IMG/VR virus record: IMGVR_UViG_2922690425_000004
Location: 32,001-96,000 of that record
Length of the DNA: 64,000 bases
Direction: 5' to 3' (one strand)
Source of the DNA: a virus
Lineage: Duplodnaviria; Caudoviricetes
The notes below the pieces were generated by a model, which worked only from the letters and a program-made list of their open reading frames with translations, ran no database searches and was not told the DNA's origin. Positions 23,121 through 58,959 of the stretch are shown here, in pieces. Each line of letters starts with the position of its first letter. Positions within the stretch are counted from its first letter, which is position 1. The position numbers were made by a program, and so were the translations under genes.

Positions 23121-24170
23121 ATGAGTGCATCGCTAAATAATAATTTGGTTGGATTACATACAAAAAGTGTAAATGAAGACATTGAAACTCATTTGAATAG
23201 TTTCGAAAGTAGATTTACTTCAAACACTTATAGAAATAGATTGGTTAAATTCTTTATGTGGTACAGAGGTAAAAATCTAGCTTCATTAAAAGAAGATGAC
23301 TTGCAGATTAGAAATGCTGATATTCTAAGATATCGTAACTTTTTAAAAGAATTAATAGACGAAGAAGGAAAGAGATTCTATACAAACACTACAATCAATA
23401 ATTTCATTGCAGCGATACAAAGCCTATATACATTTCTCGAAAAAAATGACTACAATGTAAAAGCAATTGTGACTCAAATAAAGCCATTATCTGATGATTC
23501 CGAACAATGCGGTAGACTCTATACTCATGAAGCTGAACAGATGGCTGTGATTGCCGAAGGGACAGTAAAAGGTGTCGAAAAATCAGCATTGATTCGCATG
23601 GCATACACAACGAGTTTTCGTAAAGGATCACTATTAAATCTTCAATGGGCAGATATAATCAAAACTGAATCTCATGATTACTATGAGGTAAATATTATAG
23701 GGAAAGGTGGGAAGAAACATGTAATGCCAATCTCTTCAGATCTATATGATTATCTACTAAAAATAAAGGAACAACCATACTATAAAAGATACAATGATAA
23801 TAAAATATTTCATTTAGGCACAAAAACAATTCAAAATATGATGGATTATCTAAAAAACGAACTGAAAATACCAAAAGAAAGAAACGTTGTGTTCCATAGT
23901 TTTCGGAATGTTGCTAGTATGTATGGAACACTAGAAGAAGCAAAAGAACACTACAATCATTCTAGTTACAATGTTACGGAACGTTACAGACATAAAGACA
24001 ATGATTTAAGTAATAGCCTCAGTTTACGTATCGGCAATCAAATCGACGATTCAATATTTGATGAATTGACAAAAGAAGAATTGATTGAGATTATTCTAAA
24101 TCAGCACGAAGGAGCAGTATTCCAAATGAAGAGGGAAGCCAAAAAAATAAAAGAAGGGAAGACAGAGTAA
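23121..24170 (+). CDS. yopP: Tyrosine recombinase, YopP/SroD-like
   Basis: SFR, GKGGK, FHSFR and NHSSYNVTERY give the full R-K-H-R-H-Y set. Confidence 0.8.
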   Translation: MSASLNNNLVGLHTKSVNEDIETHLNSFESRFTSNTYRNRLVKFFMWYRGKNLASLKEDDLQIRNADILRYRNFLKELIDEEGKRFYTNTTINNFIAAIQSLYTFLEKNDYNVKAIVTQIKPLSDDSEQCGRLYTHEAEQMAVIAEGTVKGVEKSALIRMAYTTSFRKGSLLNLQWADIIKTESHDYYEVNIIGKGGKKHVMPISSDLYDYLLKIKEQPYYKRYNDNKIFHLGTKTIQNMMDYLKNELKIPKERNVVFHSFRNVASMYGTLEEAKEHYNHSSYNVTERYRHKDNDLSNSLSLRIGNQIDDSIFDELTKEELIEIILNQHEGAVFQMKREAKKIKEGKTE

Positions 24171-24881: not shown

Positions 24882-24893
24882 AAATTTACCTAG

Positions 24894-24991
24894 TCCCAAT
24901 TTATCCAAGTATCACTCCCAAAACATCCAAAATCTACTCCCAATTTATCCAACATCCACTCCCTATTCCTCCGGGAGAAATAGGGGACTAG
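24894..24991 (+). repeat. 22-bp iteron array, putative origin
   Basis: TCCCAATTTATCCAA-type units start at 24894, 24916, 24938 and 24960, bracketed by CTAGTCCC/GGGACTAG and followed by an AT-rich tract. Confidence 0.7.
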
Positions 24992-27840: not shown

Positions 27841-28079
27841 CACCTACTTTTAACCCGTCTAAAAGACGGTTTTTTTATTACTTTAATATACAAAAATAAT
27901 TAAATATATTGATATGATGATCCGTTTATGCTATAATAAATACATAAAGAACAAGAGATAACGAGGTGAAAACATAATGAGTCAATCAAAATTAGCAATA
28001 ATAAAAAGCCAATGGCAACGCAGGCAAATCTTAAAAAGTCAAACTGTATTCGGACATTTGGTATTAAGATAATAATTCA

Positions 28080-46927: not shown

Positions 46928-46984
46928 TCGTCATCCCAACACATGTTCGGTAAAAGATGTGTTTCACAGGGAAGGAGCATAGCT

Positions 46985-47350
46985 GTGACTGATAAGATTG
47001 ACCTGTATGTTGACGATCTTAGAGACTGTCCAGATGGCTTTGTGGTGGCTCGTACATACTATGAAGCAATACATATCCTTGAAACCAAAAGTGTCGGCAT
47101 TCTTACGTTAGACCATGATTTGGGAGAGGACGTAGATGGTAAAGAACTGCCTAACGGATATGACTTGGTGAAGTACTTCTGTGAACATGGATTGAGGGCT
47201 GATAAGATATATTTACATACAGACAACCCTGTGGGACGCAAGAACATGCATGAAACGTTGTTAGCTGCTCAGCGGAGAGGTTTTATCGATGAGGATATTG
47301 AGATATATCATTATCCTATAACGGTGAACAAGTATTCTGGTAGCTGGTAA
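46985..47350 (+). CDS. Cyclic-phosphate-processing receiver-like protein
   Basis: LYVDDLR, LDHDLGE and HTDNPVG motifs. Confidence 0.7.
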   Translation: MTDKIDLYVDDLRDCPDGFVVARTYYEAIHILETKSVGILTLDHDLGEDVDGKELPNGYDLVKYFCEHGLRADKIYLHTDNPVGRKNMHETLLAAQRRGFIDEDIEIYHYPITVNKYSGSW

Positions 47351-47388
47351 AAGGCATGTTTCATAATGGAGAGGAGACCCAGAATAAA

Positions 47389-48543
47389 ATGAAATTAAAG
47401 GTTCAGTTCACAAACGAGCTACCATTTATGATTCAACTTCCAAATGGAGATTATTCAGTAAGAACGAGACTAAACCCAACAGAAGAGAAAGATTTTATCC
47501 TAAAATTAAGTGATGATGTTTTCAGAGTACATATTAATCCTTTTGGTAGCAAAAAGTCTGCCATGTGTATCGAAGGTGAGAGAGCGGAATTGGAAAGTTA
47601 CATAATCAATAATCGTATTCCAAATTATGCTTTCGAACCTTGTAAAAGTTATATTAGTTGTACAATTGAGGAGGAACTAGAATTAAAAGATGAACTGTAT
47701 TTAAATGTCACGAACGACGACTTGATTGATAAAATTAAATCAAAAATGATAAGAGAAGGAATTAAATATACTGATACCATTGATTTAACTAGAATGGCGA
47801 CAACAGAATTTGGCACCTACAATACAGATCAGGTTTTAGAAGAAAAAATAGATTACGTTGTTAATAGGAGATTGAATGAACTTAGCAGATTAGTTTATCC
47901 CTATCATAATGCTTTAAATCAATTCATAAAACAATATTCTTATCTGCGAAATGATTTTTTTGTCGAAACTACAACTATGCATACTCTTAAGGGGACGACA
48001 TCGAGACAGTTTGTCGATGGTTATTATTATGATTCTATTAAGCATGCTGGAAAAGCACCTAGCATGATGCCATATCAAAAATGGTTACCAGAGATCGATA
48101 GTAATCATGTTGAAACATTAAAAGAAAGACTTATAAATGGTTTCGATATTCCACCTACTAAAGATTTGATTATAATGGCTCGCAATCTTGCTGAAAGAGG
48201 AGAGTACCGTTCAGCAATCATTAATAGTTCCGCAGCTCTTGAGGTTGCTGTAGAACAAAAAATCATTGAGAAAATGTATTTGAATGGAAACACGCAAGCG
48301 GAAATTGATACTTTCTTAGACAGCACAAAGACTAATTTTTATAGGAGATGCGACAGACAATTGAATGAGAAGGCAGGGCAATCACTGGTACGAAACAATC
48401 CTACTCTTTGGACAAACATTAATTCCCACAGGAATAGATACCGTCATAAGATTGCTCATTCTTCGCTCATGCCCAATGCGAGGGATACCGAGAAAGTAAT
48501 TAACGATTTTGAGATAGCCGTAAACTGGGTAGAAGCTTTATAA
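47389..48543 (+). CDS. HEPN-domain protein (putative RNase, defence)
   Basis: SAIINSSAALEVAVE helix and RHKIAH (R-x4-H) motif. Confidence 0.55.
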   Translation: MKLKVQFTNELPFMIQLPNGDYSVRTRLNPTEEKDFILKLSDDVFRVHINPFGSKKSAMCIEGERAELESYIINNRIPNYAFEPCKSYISCTIEEELELKDELYLNVTNDDLIDKIKSKMIREGIKYTDTIDLTRMATTEFGTYNTDQVLEEKIDYVVNRRLNELSRLVYPYHNALNQFIKQYSYLRNDFFVETTTMHTLKGTTSRQFVDGYYYDSIKHAGKAPSMMPYQKWLPEIDSNHVETLKERLINGFDIPPTKDLIIMARNLAERGEYRSAIINSSAALEVAVEQKIIEKMYLNGNTQAEIDTFLDSTKTNFYRRCDRQLNEKAGQSLVRNNPTLWTNINSHRNRYRHKIAHSSLMPNARDTEKVINDFEIAVNWVEAL

Positions 48544-50176: not shown

Positions 50177-50190
50177 AGAACAAACGTTCC
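50177..50190. promoter_or_regulatory. LexA (Cheo) box upstream of mazF
   Basis: AGAAC-AAAC-GTTCC abutting TTGTAT(50194)-17-TATAAT(50217). Confidence 0.6.
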
Positions 50191-50319
50191 ATCTTGTATT
50201 TAATTATTTTTGTTAGTATAATTACATATAGAAAGAGCAAGATAAGTTTAGAAAAGTACATAATAGAATTTAAAACTAGTAGCAAAAATAAAAATAAGAT
50301 GAGAAGTAAACAATAGTTA

Positions 50320-50706
50320 ATGAGGAGTGATTACATAGTGGCGGTAGCAATGGATCGAATGACAAAAGAAATTAAACGCTTGGATATGTGGAATGTACAT
50401 TTAGGGAGCAATAAAGGGAGCGTACAAAGTGGTGAAAGACCTTGTGTGGTGATTGGTAACAATATGGGAAACAAGTATTCTCCAGTAGTTATAGTGGCTC
50501 CTGTAACATCACGTGTAAAAAAAGAAATGCCTACTCATGTAAAAGTAAGTGGAACAGACACAGGACTATATAGCGATAGCATCATTTTGCTGGAACAAAT
50601 TATGACTATATCCAAAGATCAATTAGATTTTAAAATTACCGAACTTCCAGATAAGTATAGTCATGAAATTGTGGATGCATTATCAGTTTCATTGGCAATG
50701 AGATAA
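50320..50706 (+). CDS. mazF: MazF/PemK (EndoA-like) endoribonuclease, no adjacent MazE
   Basis: GSVQSGERPCVVIGNNMGNKYSPVVIVAPVTS...PTHV...EQIMTISK. Confidence 0.85.
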   Translation: MRSDYIVAVAMDRMTKEIKRLDMWNVHLGSNKGSVQSGERPCVVIGNNMGNKYSPVVIVAPVTSRVKKEMPTHVKVSGTDTGLYSDSIILLEQIMTISKDQLDFKITELPDKYSHEIVDALSVSLAMR

Positions 50707-53394: not shown

Positions 53395-54714
53395 GTGACG
53401 ATATTGAAAAAAGAGAGAAGCGAATTAGAACAACGTCTAACTGAAATTGTTGAATCAAATAAAAATGATAAGAAAAGCATTTTAAAAATTAATGATCGTT
53501 TGAGTGCATTGGGAGTTCCATACGGAGAATATAATAAAATAATAATCAACACAAAACTGTTACAAGATACTGATATTTCACTTATATGTGTGATTACAGA
53601 AGTATTGCAAAGTGTACTTGGTAATACAATAATTGATGTAATGGACTATTTTAGCCATAATGAAATAAACGAAGCAAAAGAAAACATTAAATTGATCTAT
53701 CAAAAAGATTATTTAAAACTGCCTATTACTTTTGAAGACGTAATACAAATAGATGAAAGATCGTATTCTACAAAGATTACTATACAGATGTTGGTACAAA
53801 TGTTCAATTCTCAATTAATTAATTATGACCCTCGTTCCCAACGTGGTATGAGATACAAAGGTAATACTCGCGATGGTGTAGTGGAGTCACCCATTGTTAA
53901 CCAAACGAGTGTAAAAAAAATTGCTCAAAAAATTCTAAATCAAAGCTATCTTGCAGATACAATTACTTTTAATGTATTCGCATACGAGCACCAACCTGTG
54001 ACATATGATAAAGAAAATTATACTCTCACAATAAACGAAAAAAGTATAATTTCCATACTCGATGGATATCATCGTTTTCAAGGTCAAATTAAAGCTTTGA
54101 ACACAAAAGAAGACATTGATTTTGTATCTCCTCTTTCAATAAGAGTATATGACAACACCACCGCAGAACAATATTTTGGTCAAATAAATACCATAAACCC
54201 TTTGTCCAAGGAAAGAAGAAAAGAACTACAAGCGGAAAAGAAGTCAGACAACGTGGTAAAAGAATTACAAAATAATCCAAATAGTGAACTAAGAGGGATT
54301 AGAATTGCTTCTAGCAGAAAGGCAAATAAAGAAGTTGGTCAACTTACAACTTTCAGTATTTTGTCATTCGGAATTGAAAAAACATTTAACCCAACTAATT
54401 ATGTTGAGTACAGAGAAGTCTCAGAATATTTAATTAAATTTTTTGGGTATCTTATTGGCTTTTATTACGACGAATTTATTGAAAATCCCAATAAACACAC
54501 TTATATCAACAATCCTTTTATGTTCCTTGGGTATACGGTTATCGCTAAACGTTTTTACGATGAGAATAGAGAATTGAAAAGTTTGAAGAGTGTTGTAGAT
54601 GAGATCAATTTTGAAGATAATGATTTGATTGAAATCCTTGAATCGAAGAGAATTTACGACAATAAGAAATTACAGGGAGAACTTATAAAATATTTTGAGC
54701 GCACTATAAAATAA
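53395..54714 (+). CDS. yopQ: DGQHR/DndB-like protein, YopQ/SroE-like
   Basis: YDPRSQRG and ILDGYHR motifs; directly upstream of the YopR-like gene. Confidence 0.7.
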   Translation: MTILKKERSELEQRLTEIVESNKNDKKSILKINDRLSALGVPYGEYNKIIINTKLLQDTDISLICVITEVLQSVLGNTIIDVMDYFSHNEINEAKENIKLIYQKDYLKLPITFEDVIQIDERSYSTKITIQMLVQMFNSQLINYDPRSQRGMRYKGNTRDGVVESPIVNQTSVKKIAQKILNQSYLADTITFNVFAYEHQPVTYDKENYTLTINEKSIISILDGYHRFQGQIKALNTKEDIDFVSPLSIRVYDNTTAEQYFGQINTINPLSKERRKELQAEKKSDNVVKELQNNPNSELRGIRIASSRKANKEVGQLTTFSILSFGIEKTFNPTNYVEYREVSEYLIKFFGYLIGFYYDEFIENPNKHTYINNPFMFLGYTVIAKRFYDENRELKSLKSVVDEINFEDNDLIEILESKRIYDNKKLQGELIKYFERTIK

Positions 54715-54731: not shown

Positions 54732-55721
54732 ATGAACCGTATATATGGAGACAATCTATATAATCCAGATATAAAACAAAGGTTTTTAGAGGGATATAGA
54801 AAAGCAACAAGAGGTAATTATGAAAGTAAATTAAAACGTGCAAGCAAGGTTGAAATGAAATACAACAAAGATTTGTATAATTTTAGTTTGTCCGAAATCG
54901 AAGAGGTTATGTATTTGTTGGCTCCCAATAAATTGAGTTCGGCAACTATATATGGATCGGTAATTAAAAAATACATCGAGTGGGCTATTTCTCAAGATCT
55001 TAGAGCTGATAATCTGAATCCACTTGATGTTGTTAATGGTAAGGAATTTTATGAAAAGTTTATTCCAAAACAAATTCTTATAAGAGATGACGATCTTGAG
55101 TTAGCGCTTGGTAAAATTGATAGCAATAGAGATATTGTTATAATTCAAAGTATATTTGAAGGCATTCTAGGACGTGAATGCTCCGAAATCAGGAACTTGA
55201 AAAAGCAGGATATAAATCAAGCCAATGGGACAGTAAAACTTACAAACGTTGGACGATATGGTGAAGTGGAAGAACGAGAAATAGAGATAAGCGAATTTTT
55301 ATTGGAAGCAATGTTTAGAGCCGATGAGGAGACAGCTTATAGCTCAAATTTCGGTGAAGGGAGTCTCAGTAATAAAAAAATCAGTAGCCTTAAAGACAGT
55401 TCTTATATTATAAAAAGCACTAAAGACGAAAAAGTTAAACAGACCCTTATATCTCAAACTATCACAAAGTTTGCTACAAAGCTAAATATGGATAGATTGT
55501 CTCCAGTAGACATAAGGAATTCAGGAATGCTAAAAATGGCGAAAGATTTTTATGTTGATAATAAGGGTAAACTGGAGAGAAGCGATATACATGAAATAAG
55601 CAAAAAGTTTAATGTGGGCAGTAAAGATGGAGAGATTTTCTATACAACAATGTACACAAAAGACTTTTTAAATATAGAAACAATAATAAGAATATATCCA
55701 GAAGTACTTGAAGTAGAATAA
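54732..55721 (+). CDS. yopR: Master lysogeny repressor, catalytically degenerate tyrosine-recombinase fold (YopR/MrpR/SroF-like)
   Basis: LYNPDIKQRFL, KDLYNFS, FEGILG..SEIRNLK and IRNSG motifs; lacks the catalytic HxxR His. Confidence 0.75.
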   Translation: MNRIYGDNLYNPDIKQRFLEGYRKATRGNYESKLKRASKVEMKYNKDLYNFSLSEIEEVMYLLAPNKLSSATIYGSVIKKYIEWAISQDLRADNLNPLDVVNGKEFYEKFIPKQILIRDDDLELALGKIDSNRDIVIIQSIFEGILGRECSEIRNLKKQDINQANGTVKLTNVGRYGEVEEREIEISEFLLEAMFRADEETAYSSNFGEGSLSNKKISSLKDSSYIIKSTKDEKVKQTLISQTITKFATKLNMDRLSPVDIRNSGMLKMAKDFYVDNKGKLERSDIHEISKKFNVGSKDGEIFYTTMYTKDFLNIETIIRIYPEVLEVE

Positions 55722-55747
55722 GTTTTTTCTTATTCTACTTTTTTTTA
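55711..55747 (+). terminator. Terminator after the repressor
   Basis: AAGTAGAATAAG-6-CTTATTCTACTT plus T-tract. Confidence 0.7.
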
Positions 55748-55757
55748 TGTGTAGATG

Positions 55758-55786
55758 TTGACAGATCTGATTACTCATGATATATT
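55758..55786 (+). promoter_or_regulatory. sigmaA promoter of the agr-like operon
   Basis: TTGACA-17-TATATT with extended TG. Confidence 0.65.
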
Positions 55787-55833
55787 CACTATATAAATTA
55801 ATTATATTTGTATTTAGGGAGAGAAACAGCAGA

Positions 55834-56475
55834 ATGGAAACAATCAAATACATATTATTGTCTATGTTTGATGGAGTAGCAATTTTTACATTTGGTTTTG
55901 GGATGTACCAAGTTAAGCTTCGTGAGTATTGGATACAGTTTGTGGTGGCGAGTTTATGTATATCTGTTGCTACTTATCTATACAGAGATTATGGGCTACC
56001 AGAGAACTTTGCTCCCATTGTAAACATAGGTTTGATGATCGTTTTTCTCATTTCTTTGTTTAAGATATCGCTACTTTCATCACTTAGAATTTCTGGAATT
56101 AGTTTTTTGTTTTCATTTATTGCTCAAACAATAATTGCAGTCCTTTTTATGGTATCAACATCGAAGTCATTAGATTCAACACTTTTTACATATGGATATA
56201 TAGTACAAATAGCAGGGGACAGTATAGTAATCTTTACAAGTCTATATTTAAGAAAAAAATCTATCTGGTTTACTACATTACCCTATCAATACTCCTTAAA
56301 ATTCAAATTAAATTTCTCGAATATCACTTTGTTTATTGCGTCACTTTTAGGCGTAACATTTATGAGTAAATCTATTTTTAACAATATATATATAAATGGT
56401 CTTTTTTGGTTGGCAATATTCGTGATTATGATAATGATTGAATTTAGAAAGGAATTAAAAGATGAGAATAATTGA
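55834..56475 (+). CDS. Polytopic membrane protein resembling an AgrC sensor domain without kinase
   Basis: About 7 hydrophobic helices; ends before any HisKA/HATPase domain; overlaps the agrB start. Confidence 0.6.
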   Translation: METIKYILLSMFDGVAIFTFGFGMYQVKLREYWIQFVVASLCISVATYLYRDYGLPENFAPIVNIGLMIVFLISLFKISLLSSLRISGISFLFSFIAQTIIAVLFMVSTSKSLDSTLFTYGYIVQIAGDSIVIFTSLYLRKKSIWFTTLPYQYSLKFKLNFSNITLFIASLLGVTFMSKSIFNNIYINGLFWLAIFVIMIMIEFRKELKDENN

Positions 56476-57001
56476 TCATTTTGTTGACAAAGTGAGTCAC
56501 CAATTAAAAAATAAATATCCAGACGAGTTGCCTTCATATGGAATCATCCGATATGCTTTAAAGTTCATAATTACAAATACTATACCTATTTTTTTGATAA
56601 TAATGTTTTCTCTGATTTTTGGTAATTTAAAAGAAAGTTTGATAGCGATACTTGGTTTCTCACTACTAAGAATATTTTCGGGAGGGTTTCATTTTCAAAC
56701 TCCCGAAAAGTGCATAATTTTTTCGACAGTAATGATTATTCTTATTTCTGAACTTGGCTACTATTTTACTACACATACTTTTATAATGTTTATAGTTAGT
56801 TTGCTTATAGTTCTAATTTACGCACCAAGCGATATACAAAATCAAACAAAAGTAAAAAAAGAAAATTATAAATGGTTTAAAATTATTTCATTGTTGCTAG
56901 TTTCAATATTTTATTTAATAGACAACCCAATATCTAATCTAGCTATATTAGTTCAAAGTATTCTTCTTATTCGCCTGAAGGGAGGTGGAAAGGAAGAATG
57001 A
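56462..57001 (+). CDS. agrB: AgrB-family peptide maturation protease
   Basis: LRIFSGGFHFQTPEKC (catalytic His/Cys) and YAP motifs. Confidence 0.9.
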   Translation: MRIIDHFVDKVSHQLKNKYPDELPSYGIIRYALKFIITNTIPIFLIIMFSLIFGNLKESLIAILGFSLLRIFSGGFHFQTPEKCIIFSTVMIILISELGYYFTTHTFIMFIVSLLIVLIYAPSDIQNQTKVKKENYKWFKIISLLLVSIFYLIDNPISNLAILVQSILLIRLKGGGKEE

Positions 57002-57117
57002 AAAGCAAATTGATTATGTTAGTTGGCTTCGTTTTTACGATTCTGACTGTAGCAGAAGTAAATCTCGCTAGTTGGACGCTGGTATGCAGTGAGCCAGTGC
57101 CTGATGAATTGAAGTAA
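56998..57117 (+). CDS. agrD: AgrD-like cyclic lactone autoinducer precursor (39 aa)
   Basis: Hand translation MKSKLIMLVGFVFTILTVAEVNLASWTLVCSEPVPDELK; ATGA overlap with agrB; GGAGG RBS. Confidence 0.85.
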   Translation: MKSKLIMLVGFVFTILTVAEVNLASWTLVCSEPVPDELK

Positions 57118-57193
57118 TTAAGTGAAACAAATGTTTACCGCCTTGTACTGAATAAAACTTGCAAGGCGAGTAAACGAATCGAGGTGAATTCCA

Positions 57194-57559
57194 ATGAAGT
57201 TGACAGATACAATCAAGGTAGTAAAAAGAGAAGGTAAAAAAACACATGACCAAGCGATAATGCTTCAAGTTGGGGAAATCCGAGCTTTTAAACCTGAAAC
57301 AAAAAATGGACGAACTACGCTTGTATATTTGACAGATGACGGTGAATACATAGACGAGACCAGAGTGGATCAAACGATGAAATTATTTCAAGAACTACCT
57401 GAGTTTGAAAAAGCAAGTAGAGGAAGTATGGTTCAGATCGGAAAAATTGAACATATAGATGAAAAGAGTTATAAGATTTATGTCAATAAGCTTAAAACTC
57501 ATTTCGTAGATGTAACAGCTATACACTTGAAAAAAATACTGAGTTATTTCAAAAGGTAA
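57194..57559 (+). CDS. Stand-alone LytTR-type DNA-binding protein
   Basis: FEKASRGSMVQIGKIEHID matches LytTR F.R.HRS..VN...I..I; no receiver domain. Confidence 0.65.
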   Translation: MKLTDTIKVVKREGKKTHDQAIMLQVGEIRAFKPETKNGRTTLVYLTDDGEYIDETRVDQTMKLFQELPEFEKASRGSMVQIGKIEHIDEKSYKIYVNKLKTHFVDVTAIHLKKILSYFKR

Positions 57560-57599: not shown

Positions 57600-57777
57600 T
57601 TGCATTTTACCTTTTGGTATTGGTATAATGAAGTAAATCAGAACAAGTGTTCTTGTTTATTGGTTATTCGACATTTTGCGACATAAATATTGTAGATCAT
57701 TCCATATAAAGGGTTTTGTCAAGAAATATTCGTATGATATGAATTTCAGTTGCCTAACTCTGGAAATATCATATAAT
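57600..57777 (+). promoter_or_regulatory. Promoter hub: sigmaA promoters, LexA box, tandem Spo0A boxes, shared palindrome
   Basis: TG-TATAAT at 57624; AGAAC-AAGT-GTTCT 57640-53; TTCGACA 57667-73 and TGCGACA 57677-83; GAAATATTCGTATGATATGAA 57723-43. Confidence 0.6.
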
Positions 57778-58414: not shown

Positions 58415-58959
58415 ATGGTATTTACGAAAATGAATTCAATGGAAAGAAAGTAAGACATCTCAATAATTACAGAACTATTTTTATACCAGAATATCACAAA
58501 ACACTAAGAGGAAGGGGATATGAAGGATTTGTATATGAACACATATATATTGCAGAGGACATGATTGGACGTGAATTGAGACTTAAAGAAGTTGTACACC
58601 ATCTTGACCTTAACAAGCAAAACAATCATCCAAAAAATCTAATTGTACTTGAGAGTTCTCAACATGCTAAATTGCATGGTTGGCTGAAAAGAATCGATTT
58701 CAATAGTACAGTTAAACATCTTTATTGCTCTCCTTATTGCGAGGTTTGTGGGAAGATACTTAAATCTCATCAGCAAAAAACATGTTCTAGTAAATGCGGC
58801 AGTATATCAAGAGGAGTTAATCAGCGTAAGTTGGAATGGCCTAATCCAGAAGAGTTATCTCAAATGATGAACACAATGAGTTGGGTTGCAATTGGTAGAA
58901 AATATAAGGTTAGTGATAACACAGTTCGTAAGTGGGCTAAAAAGTACAATATTTTATAA
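58415..58959 (+). pseudogene. HNH homing endonuclease, apparently frameshifted at the 5' end
   Basis: VYEH...VVHHLDLNKQNNHPKNL frame is open from 58405, but the RBS-linked ATG at 58415 is out of frame. Confidence 0.55.

Follow-up and report, generated by a model that had tools for sequence, protein, structure and literature searches.

A kinase-less agr-type peptide cassette beside the master repressor gene of a large SPbeta-like Paenibacillus prophage

Directly behind the master repressor gene of a large SPbeta-like Paenibacillus prophage lies a cassette of four genes, encoding a seven-helix membrane protein, an AgrB peptidase/cyclase, a 39-aa AgrD peptide precursor and a stand-alone LytTR DNA-binding protein. 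With middling confidence, we read this cassette as a phage-borne, kinase-less branch of agr-type signalling that most likely makes the lysis-lysogeny or induction decision depend on how dense related phages or lysogens are. It occupies positions 55758-57559 of a 64,000-nt stretch of DNA (hereafter, the window), which corresponds to bases 32001-96000 of a 160,162-bp IMG/VR provirus record (IMGVR_UViG_2922690425_000004), and close homologues of the window proteins carry names from Paenibacillus sp. and P. polymyxa. A first-pass annotation, made from the letters of the window, had described a four-gene unit with its own promoter following a YopR/MrpR-like repressor gene and its terminator, and all of these elements were found where it had placed them. 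The features of the repressor gene region and of the cassette are as follows:

53395-54714: YopQ/DndB-like gene, 5' of the MrpR/YopR-like gene (PF14072, E value 1.4e-7; SPbeta YopQ by tblastn, 2.6e-33)
54732-55721, plus strand: MrpR/YopR-like master repressor gene (PF22822 MrpR_N_CB, E value 2.8e-24; SPbeta YopR by tblastn, 4.7e-21)
55710-55741, plus strand: intrinsic terminator of the MrpR-like gene, a 13-bp stem followed by a T run
55758-55786, plus strand: cassette promoter, TTGACA-17-TATATT with a TG-extended -10 box, matching the consensus at 11 of 12 positions
55834-56475, plus strand: seven-helix membrane protein of 213 aa without a kinase domain, the presumed sensor
56462-57001, plus strand: AgrB peptidase/cyclase (PF04647, E value 7.6e-28)
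56998-57117, plus strand: AgrD precursor of 39 aa, overlapping the agrB stop codon as ATGA
57133-57175, plus strand: long hairpin between agrD and lytTR (-20.8 kcal/mol, z -3.4, 15-bp stem, no U tract)
57194-57559, plus strand: stand-alone LytTR DNA-binding protein of 121 aa (AlphaFold2 model, mean predicted local distance difference test [pLDDT] score 91.8; Foldseek)

The setting is that of an SPbeta-type lysogeny module, since a MrpR/YopR tyrosine-recombinase-like repressor gene follows a YopQ/DndB-like gene in the window. Only 16 nt separate the T run of the repressor terminator from the -35 box of the cassette promoter, the layout of which (TTGACA / TGATATATT) was seen in all eight related loci; TAAAA-N6-TTTTA palindromes are absent from within this promoter. 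Three successive genes are interlocked, with an overlap of 14 nt between the membrane gene and agrB and a further overlap between agrB and agrD, and a gap of 76 nt that contains the hairpin then precedes lytTR. The one coordinate of the first-pass annotation that had to be changed is the start of the membrane gene: ATG 55777 falls within the promoter, and the start is therefore placed at ATG 55834, behind the good ribosome-binding site AGGGAGAG, which is most likely the true start and gives the 213-aa product.

To judge from the sequence searches, the membrane protein belongs to no known family. It matched nothing in Pfam or NCBIfam (neither a CPBP/Abi nor another peptidase family in either library, and no HdrM-type domain in Pfam), an ESM Atlas search returned only unnamed Bacillota clusters, and its match to phrog_15604 (4.7e-10) leads to the PHROGs category "moron." Its AlphaFold2 model contains seven helices (mean pLDDT 86.9), in keeping with the earlier description of a protein with about seven transmembrane segments and no kinase domain. 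By the numbers of Lys and Arg in the loop sequences, the N terminus is outside and the C terminus inside; in the model, a conserved Lys-rich stretch would face the cytoplasm and the outer loops appear very short. Four residues (F25, Q98, Q125, and E207) are nearly invariant in the family. A phmmer search of 1.84 billion representatives yielded 34 clusters of this protein, all of 121-224 aa, and no fusion to a kinase was found among these representative clusters. A 426-aa open frame over one family match (genome G018; G and L numbers are our handles for genomes and loci) was considered as a fused form and rejected, as it holds no kinase domain. The Pex3 helical bundle, the best structural match to the model (Z 8.2), was also set aside, being below the level that is meaningful for helical proteins.

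The two genes that follow have the hallmarks of agr peptide production. An AgrB membrane peptidase with its His and Cys is present: in addition to the PF04647 match, which upholds the first identification, nine cassette homologues all keep H77 and C84, the residues that are catalytic in S. aureus AgrB. The 39-aa AgrD, which had been proposed from an unannotated reading frame, matched none of the hidden Markov model libraries (Pfam, NCBIfam); behind agrB, however, every related cassette has a small open reading frame (ORF) like it, the product of which can be aligned with the window AgrD, so that the proposal holds. An AgrD is expected to combine an amphipathic leader, a Cys or Ser closing a five-residue ring, and an acidic C-terminal recognition tail; the 39-aa peptide agrees with this pattern, and the homologue in Brevibacillus phage Abouo is named cyclic lactone autoinducer peptide by NCBI. 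The cassette peptides share a hydrophobic leader, usually a T-A pair, and then Ser-Trp with three mostly hydrophobic residues. An arrangement of Ser plus four residues, four more residues, and then [VLAI]PxEL holds in 9 of the 10 cassette peptides of one set and in most of another; in S. aureus AgrD-I, four residues likewise lie between the ring and VPKEL. Ser-Trp is kept in almost all related precursors, and the Cys that follows the ring in the window AgrD is H, G, Y, T, or L in relatives. Because the Ser is conserved and the Cys is not, and because the spacing to VPxEL is that of S. aureus AgrD, Ser25 is taken as the ring residue, and an S-W-T-L-V lactone closed through Ser25, as first suggested, is the best prediction. 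Ring positions 3-5 vary among cassettes (SWTLV, SWTLI, SWTIL, SWMLF, SWVLL, SWFYV, SWLYI, and others), in a manner that looks like pherotype variation.

On the output side, the LytTR protein of the window scores slightly below the Pfam cut-off (20.8 vs 22.6 bits), and 9 of the 12 members of its family match PF04397 (best 6.4e-10). The fold itself is clear: the top 13 Foldseek matches to the AlphaFold2 model are all LytTR domains, the comparison with the LytTR domain of AgrA gives an E value of 1.8e-5, a TM score of 0.76, and a probability of 1.00, and the family profile matches AgrA in PDB at an E value of 0.013. As the first-pass annotation had stated, the 121-aa protein carries no receiver domain. 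It is the only LytTR protein in the 160,162-bp record, and both PF00072 Response_reg and PF14501 HATPase_c_5 (AgrC-type) are absent from the whole of that record. Neither an AgrC sensor histidine kinase nor an AgrA protein with receiver plus LytTR domain was therefore found; what is present is a soluble regulator consisting of a LytTR domain only, as in the LytTR regulatory systems (LRS) of streptococci. The cassette would be phosphorylation-free in that the phage encodes no kinase and no receiver.

The long hairpin that had been noticed between agrD and lytTR is real by its folding energy and is not peculiar to the window. A hairpin occupies this position in 8 of the 8 SPbeta-type loci compared (z -2.5 to -6.2), with unrelated sequences and a U tract in none. 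Persistence of the structure despite a changing sequence argues that it acts at the RNA level, and the hairpin probably sets the ratio of the upstream signal-making genes to lytTR.

The gene order DndB-MrpR-(membrane-AgrB-AgrD-LytTR)-126 aa recurs in loci L006-L015 and L018-L021, and it is found in a 171-kb IMG/VR record (L006), seven further assemblies, and three more genomes; at least 11 diverged SPbeta-like prophages carry the cassette at the same place. Identity of the membrane protein falls to 21-27% in these loci, and YorF or AAA_24 replication genes follow wherever the flank reaches that far. In the AgrB tree, the SPbeta-context copies cluster with a single label change (10 of 11 in a clade with support 89/89), branches are long, and the cassette AgrBs lie far from the canonical host AgrB (a branch of 7.7 changes per column). 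Since the SPbeta-context AgrBs cluster with long branches, the linkage between cassette and repressor is old, and the proximity to the master repressor first seen in the window proves to be a stable association shared by a clade of SPbeta-like prophages.

The cassette is not unique to this prophage. Neither blastn with the region nor tblastn with the LytTR protein gave a match in 50,697 phage records, and a search of the same records with AgrB found only five Brevibacillus phage records. Brevibacillus phages Abouo, Davies, and Emery carry the cassette within their lysogeny modules, and it stands beside the integrase and repressors in Abouo and Emery. Among 301 genomes sampled from the family of the genome that carries a related prophage, the membrane-protein profile matches 190, often several times per genome. 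In the best 20 of these loci, the membrane gene adjoins agrB in all 20, LytTR is detectable in 17, and MrpR is a neighbor in only 4; loci L016/L017, L043, and L044 have ordinary chromosomal neighbors. One of them, L044 (G265:C13, 7532-11707), consists of two tandem chromosomal cassettes adjoining glpX, the second with only a fragmentary AgrB match. Locus L042 (G073:C1, 7319-10606) lies about 0.8 kb from a convergent gene for a CI-like repressor (helix-turn-helix plus S24), belongs to a prophage or mobile element of another kind (with tail endopeptidase, FtsK/SpoIIIE, Replic_Relax, and RecT), and has a reversed pair of 0A-like boxes 3' of its lytTR terminator.

A further point concerns arbitrium, the peptide system that SPbeta itself uses. 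A search of the whole 160,162-bp record for AimR (PF22871) gave nothing at E values up to 1, neither SPbeta AimR nor SPbeta AimP had a match by tblastn, and AimR is also absent from the 171-kb record of the closest relative (G001) and from the 6.6-Mb genome with a related prophage (G002). The first-pass annotation had seen no AimR or AimP in the window, and this now extends to the whole provirus and two relatives (by PF22871, with the SPbeta tblastn for the provirus); the AimR of an intact arbitrium locus elsewhere in the provirus, which would have offered another route to lysogeny control, was not found in the record. The related suggestion that the cassette replaces arbitrium stands in one part only: arbitrium is absent from the provirus, but the map position differs, as aimR-aimP precede yopM-yopR on the SPbeta map and the cassette here comes after yopR, not before the sro genes.

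The sequences flanking the cassette genes suggest how it may be tied to the phage program, and the relevant features are the following:

55798-55815, plus strand: 18-nt AT-rich element TTAATTATATTTGTATTT between the cassette's -10 box and its ribosome-binding site, a candidate operator
57600-57653, plus strand: downstream promoter TTGCAT-18-TATAAT with a LexA/Cheo-type box AGAACAAGTGTTCT (57640-57653), read from the sequence
57667-57683, plus strand: tandem TTCGACA-TTT-TGCGACA, on the other strand two Spo0A-type 0A boxes (TGTCGAA) 3 bp apart, read from the sequence
57750-57777, plus strand: second promoter-like site TTGCCT-16-TATAAT before the 126-aa gene, conserved in L006 and L007
57814-58194, plus strand: conserved 126-aa protein of no known family, without a match in Pfam or PHROGs

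Within the record, the 18-nt element of the cassette leader has 8 copies at up to two mismatches (0.64 expected) and 14 at up to three (3.8 expected); copies on either strand lie at 27886, 35437, 36862, 40388, 55798, 58241, 89484, and 109575 in window numbering. Several of the copies inspected abut a -35-like box that belongs to an early promoter and have the opposite orientation, and a similar ATTATATTTG is kept at the same leader position in related loci. In SPbeta, the aimR promoter PaimR carries an SPBRE site and is under MrpR control (PMC10516654). By analogy, the 18-nt element may be an SPBRE-like operator of the MrpR-like repressor and could place the cassette under the phage repressor.

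The region 3' of lytTR comprises 254 nt and holds two promoters, the LexA/Cheo-type box, and the paired Spo0A-type boxes. The sequence GAACN4GTTC occurs only three times in the record, each time at a promoter-like site, and the LexA-type box is kept in six of the eight SPbeta-type loci compared and in L018-L021. Read on the minus strand, 57667-57683 is TGTCGCA-AAA-TGTCGAA, and it is the sole exact CGACA-N5-CGACA in the window. A [CT]GACA-N5-[CT]GACA pair follows lytTR in 11 of 12 distinct SPbeta-type loci, the copy in L011 being degenerate, and a few cassettes outside the SPbeta type likewise have similar pairs 3' of lytTR. The pair was considered as a LytTR box and dropped, as its 10-bp period differs from the 21-22-bp geometry of LytTR sites; because the 10-bp period and TGTCGAA-3 bp-TGTCGCA fit, we read it as tandem Spo0A 0A boxes, the consensus and 3-bp spacing of which are as described for phi29 and Nf (PMC2731898). 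Positions 57600-57683 thus suggest, as far as sequence motifs go, SOS and sporulation inputs on early genes. An ORF of 123-130 aa stands at the position of the 126-aa gene in L006-L015 and always follows the cassette in SPbeta-type loci; of the early genes under the control of the LexA/0A region upstream of it, the 126-aa gene may be the first.

Taken at face value, the parts would form the following circuit. AgrB should cleave off the C-terminal tail of the 39-aa AgrD and join five residues into a ring at Ser25, so that the product is an S-W-T-L-V lactone carrying a short N-terminal tail. The seven-helix membrane protein would be the receptor of this peptide, and its conserved Lys-rich cytoplasmic loop and C-terminal tail would hold or release LytTR in the manner of the membrane inhibitors of streptococcal LRS; LytTR would then act on phage promoters and perhaps on host ones. 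The hairpin before lytTR would tune the ratio of signal genes to regulator. In this way, the cassette would let the density of related phages or lysogens bear on induction or on the choice between lysis and lysogeny. Use in a phage decision is proposed because the cassette keeps its place between the repressor gene and the early promoter region with LexA and Spo0A sites in a clade that lacks arbitrium. A bolder version, which we hold only tentatively and regard as possible rather than probable, is that a Ser-lactone circuit with a new seven-helix receptor and a bare LytTR does the job of arbitrium in the Paenibacillus SPbeta-like clade, acting on the early promoter region beside the LexA and Spo0A inputs, and that the same pair is a widespread type of chromosomal signalling in the Paenibacillaceae.

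The cassette shares features with several known systems and differs from each of them. Like the canonical agr system (agrBDCA of S. aureus), the cassette has the AgrB His and Cys, a five-residue ring with the same VPxEL spacing, and a LytTR output protein; unlike it, the cassette has no AgrC kinase, no receiver on its LytTR, a predicted Ser lactone instead of a Cys ring, no LytTR repeats at its promoter, and a membrane protein not detectably related to AgrC. The LRS of Streptococcus mutans (HdrRM, BrsRM; PMC6193735) resemble it in pairing a LytTR-only protein with a polytopic membrane protein without a phosphorelay; in these, however, the inhibitor gene follows the regulator gene and no signal is known, whereas in the cassette AgrB and AgrD stand between and LytTR comes last, and neither the LRS direct repeats nor an HdrM-type domain was found in it. 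With arbitrium (AimR-AimP-AimX), the cassette shares a peptide signal in the lysogeny-control region of SPbeta-type phages, near yopQ/yopR (sroE/sroF), pherotype-like peptide variants, and, as a possible parallel to the repressor site in PaimR, a repeated phage element in its leader. The proteins are unrelated, and arbitrium uses a linear hexapeptide read inside the cell by a tetratricopeptide repeat receptor, whereas the cassette peptide would be cyclic and is presumably read at the membrane. The Clostridioides difficile phage phiCDHM1 carries agrB, agrD, and a full AgrC kinase with no regulator (PMC3901668); both it and the cassette thus have agrB and agrD, but the cassette has a regulator and no kinase.

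The nearest counterparts are in Brevibacillus phages Abouo, Davies, and Emery, for which Hargreaves et al. reported AgrB, AgrD, and kinase-less membrane proteins in 2014 (PMC3901668). Abouo gp44-gp47 match the cassette gene for gene and in order, with a membrane protein of 222 aa, AgrB, a peptide of about 40 aa ending in PxEL, and a 122-aa LytTR-only protein, the last annotated as "peptidase" and its LytTR nature absent from the 2014 account. The three phages differ from the present prophage in being 45-58 kb in size, with an integrase and XRE-type repressors and no MrpR, in sharing only 17-33% identity, and in having no hairpin before lytTR. Emery also differs in having a peptide without Ser and two membrane paralogues, both 5' of agrB (L003, 3604-6015).

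Several observations weigh against a phage decision circuit of this kind or against its novelty. The membrane protein is inferred by analogy to sense the peptide and to bind LytTR; its family profile, compared with one host AgrC sequence by hhalign, reached a probability of 0.27% (a test of low sensitivity, since a single sequence was used), and neither Foldseek against PDB nor a wide search with VIA-align found a solved analogue of its model. The AgrD-like peptide of Emery has neither Ser nor Cys at the ring position. The cassette does not occupy the map position of arbitrium, and its type was already half-noted in 2014, so that it is not new to the record. Direct repeats of 9 bp after 11-13 bp mark the agr P2/P3 promoters. 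LRS operons also carry such repeats, 12 bp apart and 4-11 bp before the -35 box, and are positively autoregulated (PMC6193735). Such 9-N12-9 repeats are absent from the cassette promoter region and from the downstream region, where no pair reaches 7 matching positions out of 9 (chance expectation about 3), and no pair is conserved in position across the eight loci. With a near-consensus promoter and no LytTR repeats, autoactivation in the style of agr or LRS is unlikely.

The cassette is, moreover, common on the chromosomes of the host family, has its own promoter, is bounded by terminators, and falls into the PHROG category of morons, and its native role may be bacterial. This leads to the main alternative, in which it is a moron, a bacterial quorum-sensing unit carried for the benefit or the steering of the host, with LytTR acting on host genes and no part in a phage decision. 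The presence of the membrane family in 190 of the 301 host-family genomes sampled, often in several copies, the best 20 loci with few MrpR neighbors, the chromosomal loci named above, and a strong promoter of its own after a terminator all agree with this alternative. We nevertheless consider it less likely than the phage circuit, as one phage lineage has held the position directly after the master repressor through deep divergence, two other phage types have the cassette, by independent placement, in or near their lysogeny modules, a repeated phage element sits inside its leader, and morons are usually patchy among relatives, which the cassette is not.

Two further alternatives concern the receptor, and to both we attach little probability. 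The phage lactone might be read or jammed by a host AgrC/AgrA pair, as cross-talk or quorum quenching, with the phage membrane protein and LytTR as accessories. A possible reader exists, as the genome with a related prophage has a canonical agr system (AgrB, a 249-aa AgrA with receiver and LytTR, and a 420-aa AgrC with HATPase_c_5), and there is a precedent in P. polymyxa, which makes the thiolactone autoinducing peptide ICFGLF, controlling antibiotic production (PMC12180512). However, a very long distance separates the AgrBs of the cassettes from the canonical host AgrB, the cassette peptides have a conserved STASW motif of their own, unlike ICFGLF, and the four genes travel together in every context, which points to a cassette that holds its own receiver. 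Alternatively, the membrane protein might serve maturation, export, or immunity of the peptide, LytTR being controlled in another way, for instance through peptide that is taken up again or through abundance alone. In its favor, maturation of AgrD takes a second, N-terminal cleavage for which AgrB is not responsible and which MroQ or SpsB carries out in S. aureus; the translational coupling of the membrane gene to agrB and the lack of detected homology to AgrC are also compatible with such a role. Against it, the protein matches no CPBP/Abi or other peptidase family, its nearly invariant F25, Q98, Q125, and E207 are not a catalytic His/Glu set, and very short outer loops with a conserved Lys-rich stretch in the cytoplasm would suit a transducer better than a protease.

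Some other features of the prophage were noted in passing. A record-wide scan of non-coding DNA for 9-N11-13-9 repeats found only a 22-bp tandem array at 24891-24978, which consists of four units of yACTCCCAAwwyATCCAAnATC, ends in a hairpin, and comes directly after an ORF of 233 aa that matches no family and a gene for a tyrosine integrase (23121-24170). It is kept in the nearest relative (G001) but not in G002 and was set aside as a LytTR target; it may represent arm sites, iterons, or a repeat RNA. The other two LexA-type boxes of the record include one, TTGACAGAACAAACGTTCC, abutting the -35 box of the promoter of a PemK/MazF-type toxin gene (50320-50706; PF02452, 1e-24; box and gene together 50178-50706), and the third is at position 78395 in window numbering. 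Between the 126-aa gene and the genes for YorF-like single-stranded DNA-binding proteins lies a gene for a small HNH endonuclease with a helix-turn-helix (58561-58959; PF13392), which probably got there by insertion as a homing endonuclease gene. Positions 46943-48543 encode a cREC_REC domain protein (PF20274, 3.4e-29) followed by a 395-aa protein with a faint HEPN match, possibly a defence or signalling pair; cREC_REC is also found upstream of the cassette region in L007.

Communication among phages by peptides has been worked out mainly for arbitrium, in which the peptide is read inside the cell, and agr genes in phages have so far been a matter of observation only. If the proposed circuit is correct, it would be a second and mechanistically different phage communication system, it would show that agr peptides can be sensed without a kinase, and LRS of the streptococcal type, the signals of which are unknown, would gain a relative with an identifiable ligand. 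As the cassette is common on the chromosomes of plant-associated Paenibacillus, the STASW peptide family and its presumed receptor family matter beyond phages, and for the phages themselves, or for their lysogens, the cassette may be a phosphorylation-free route of signalling.

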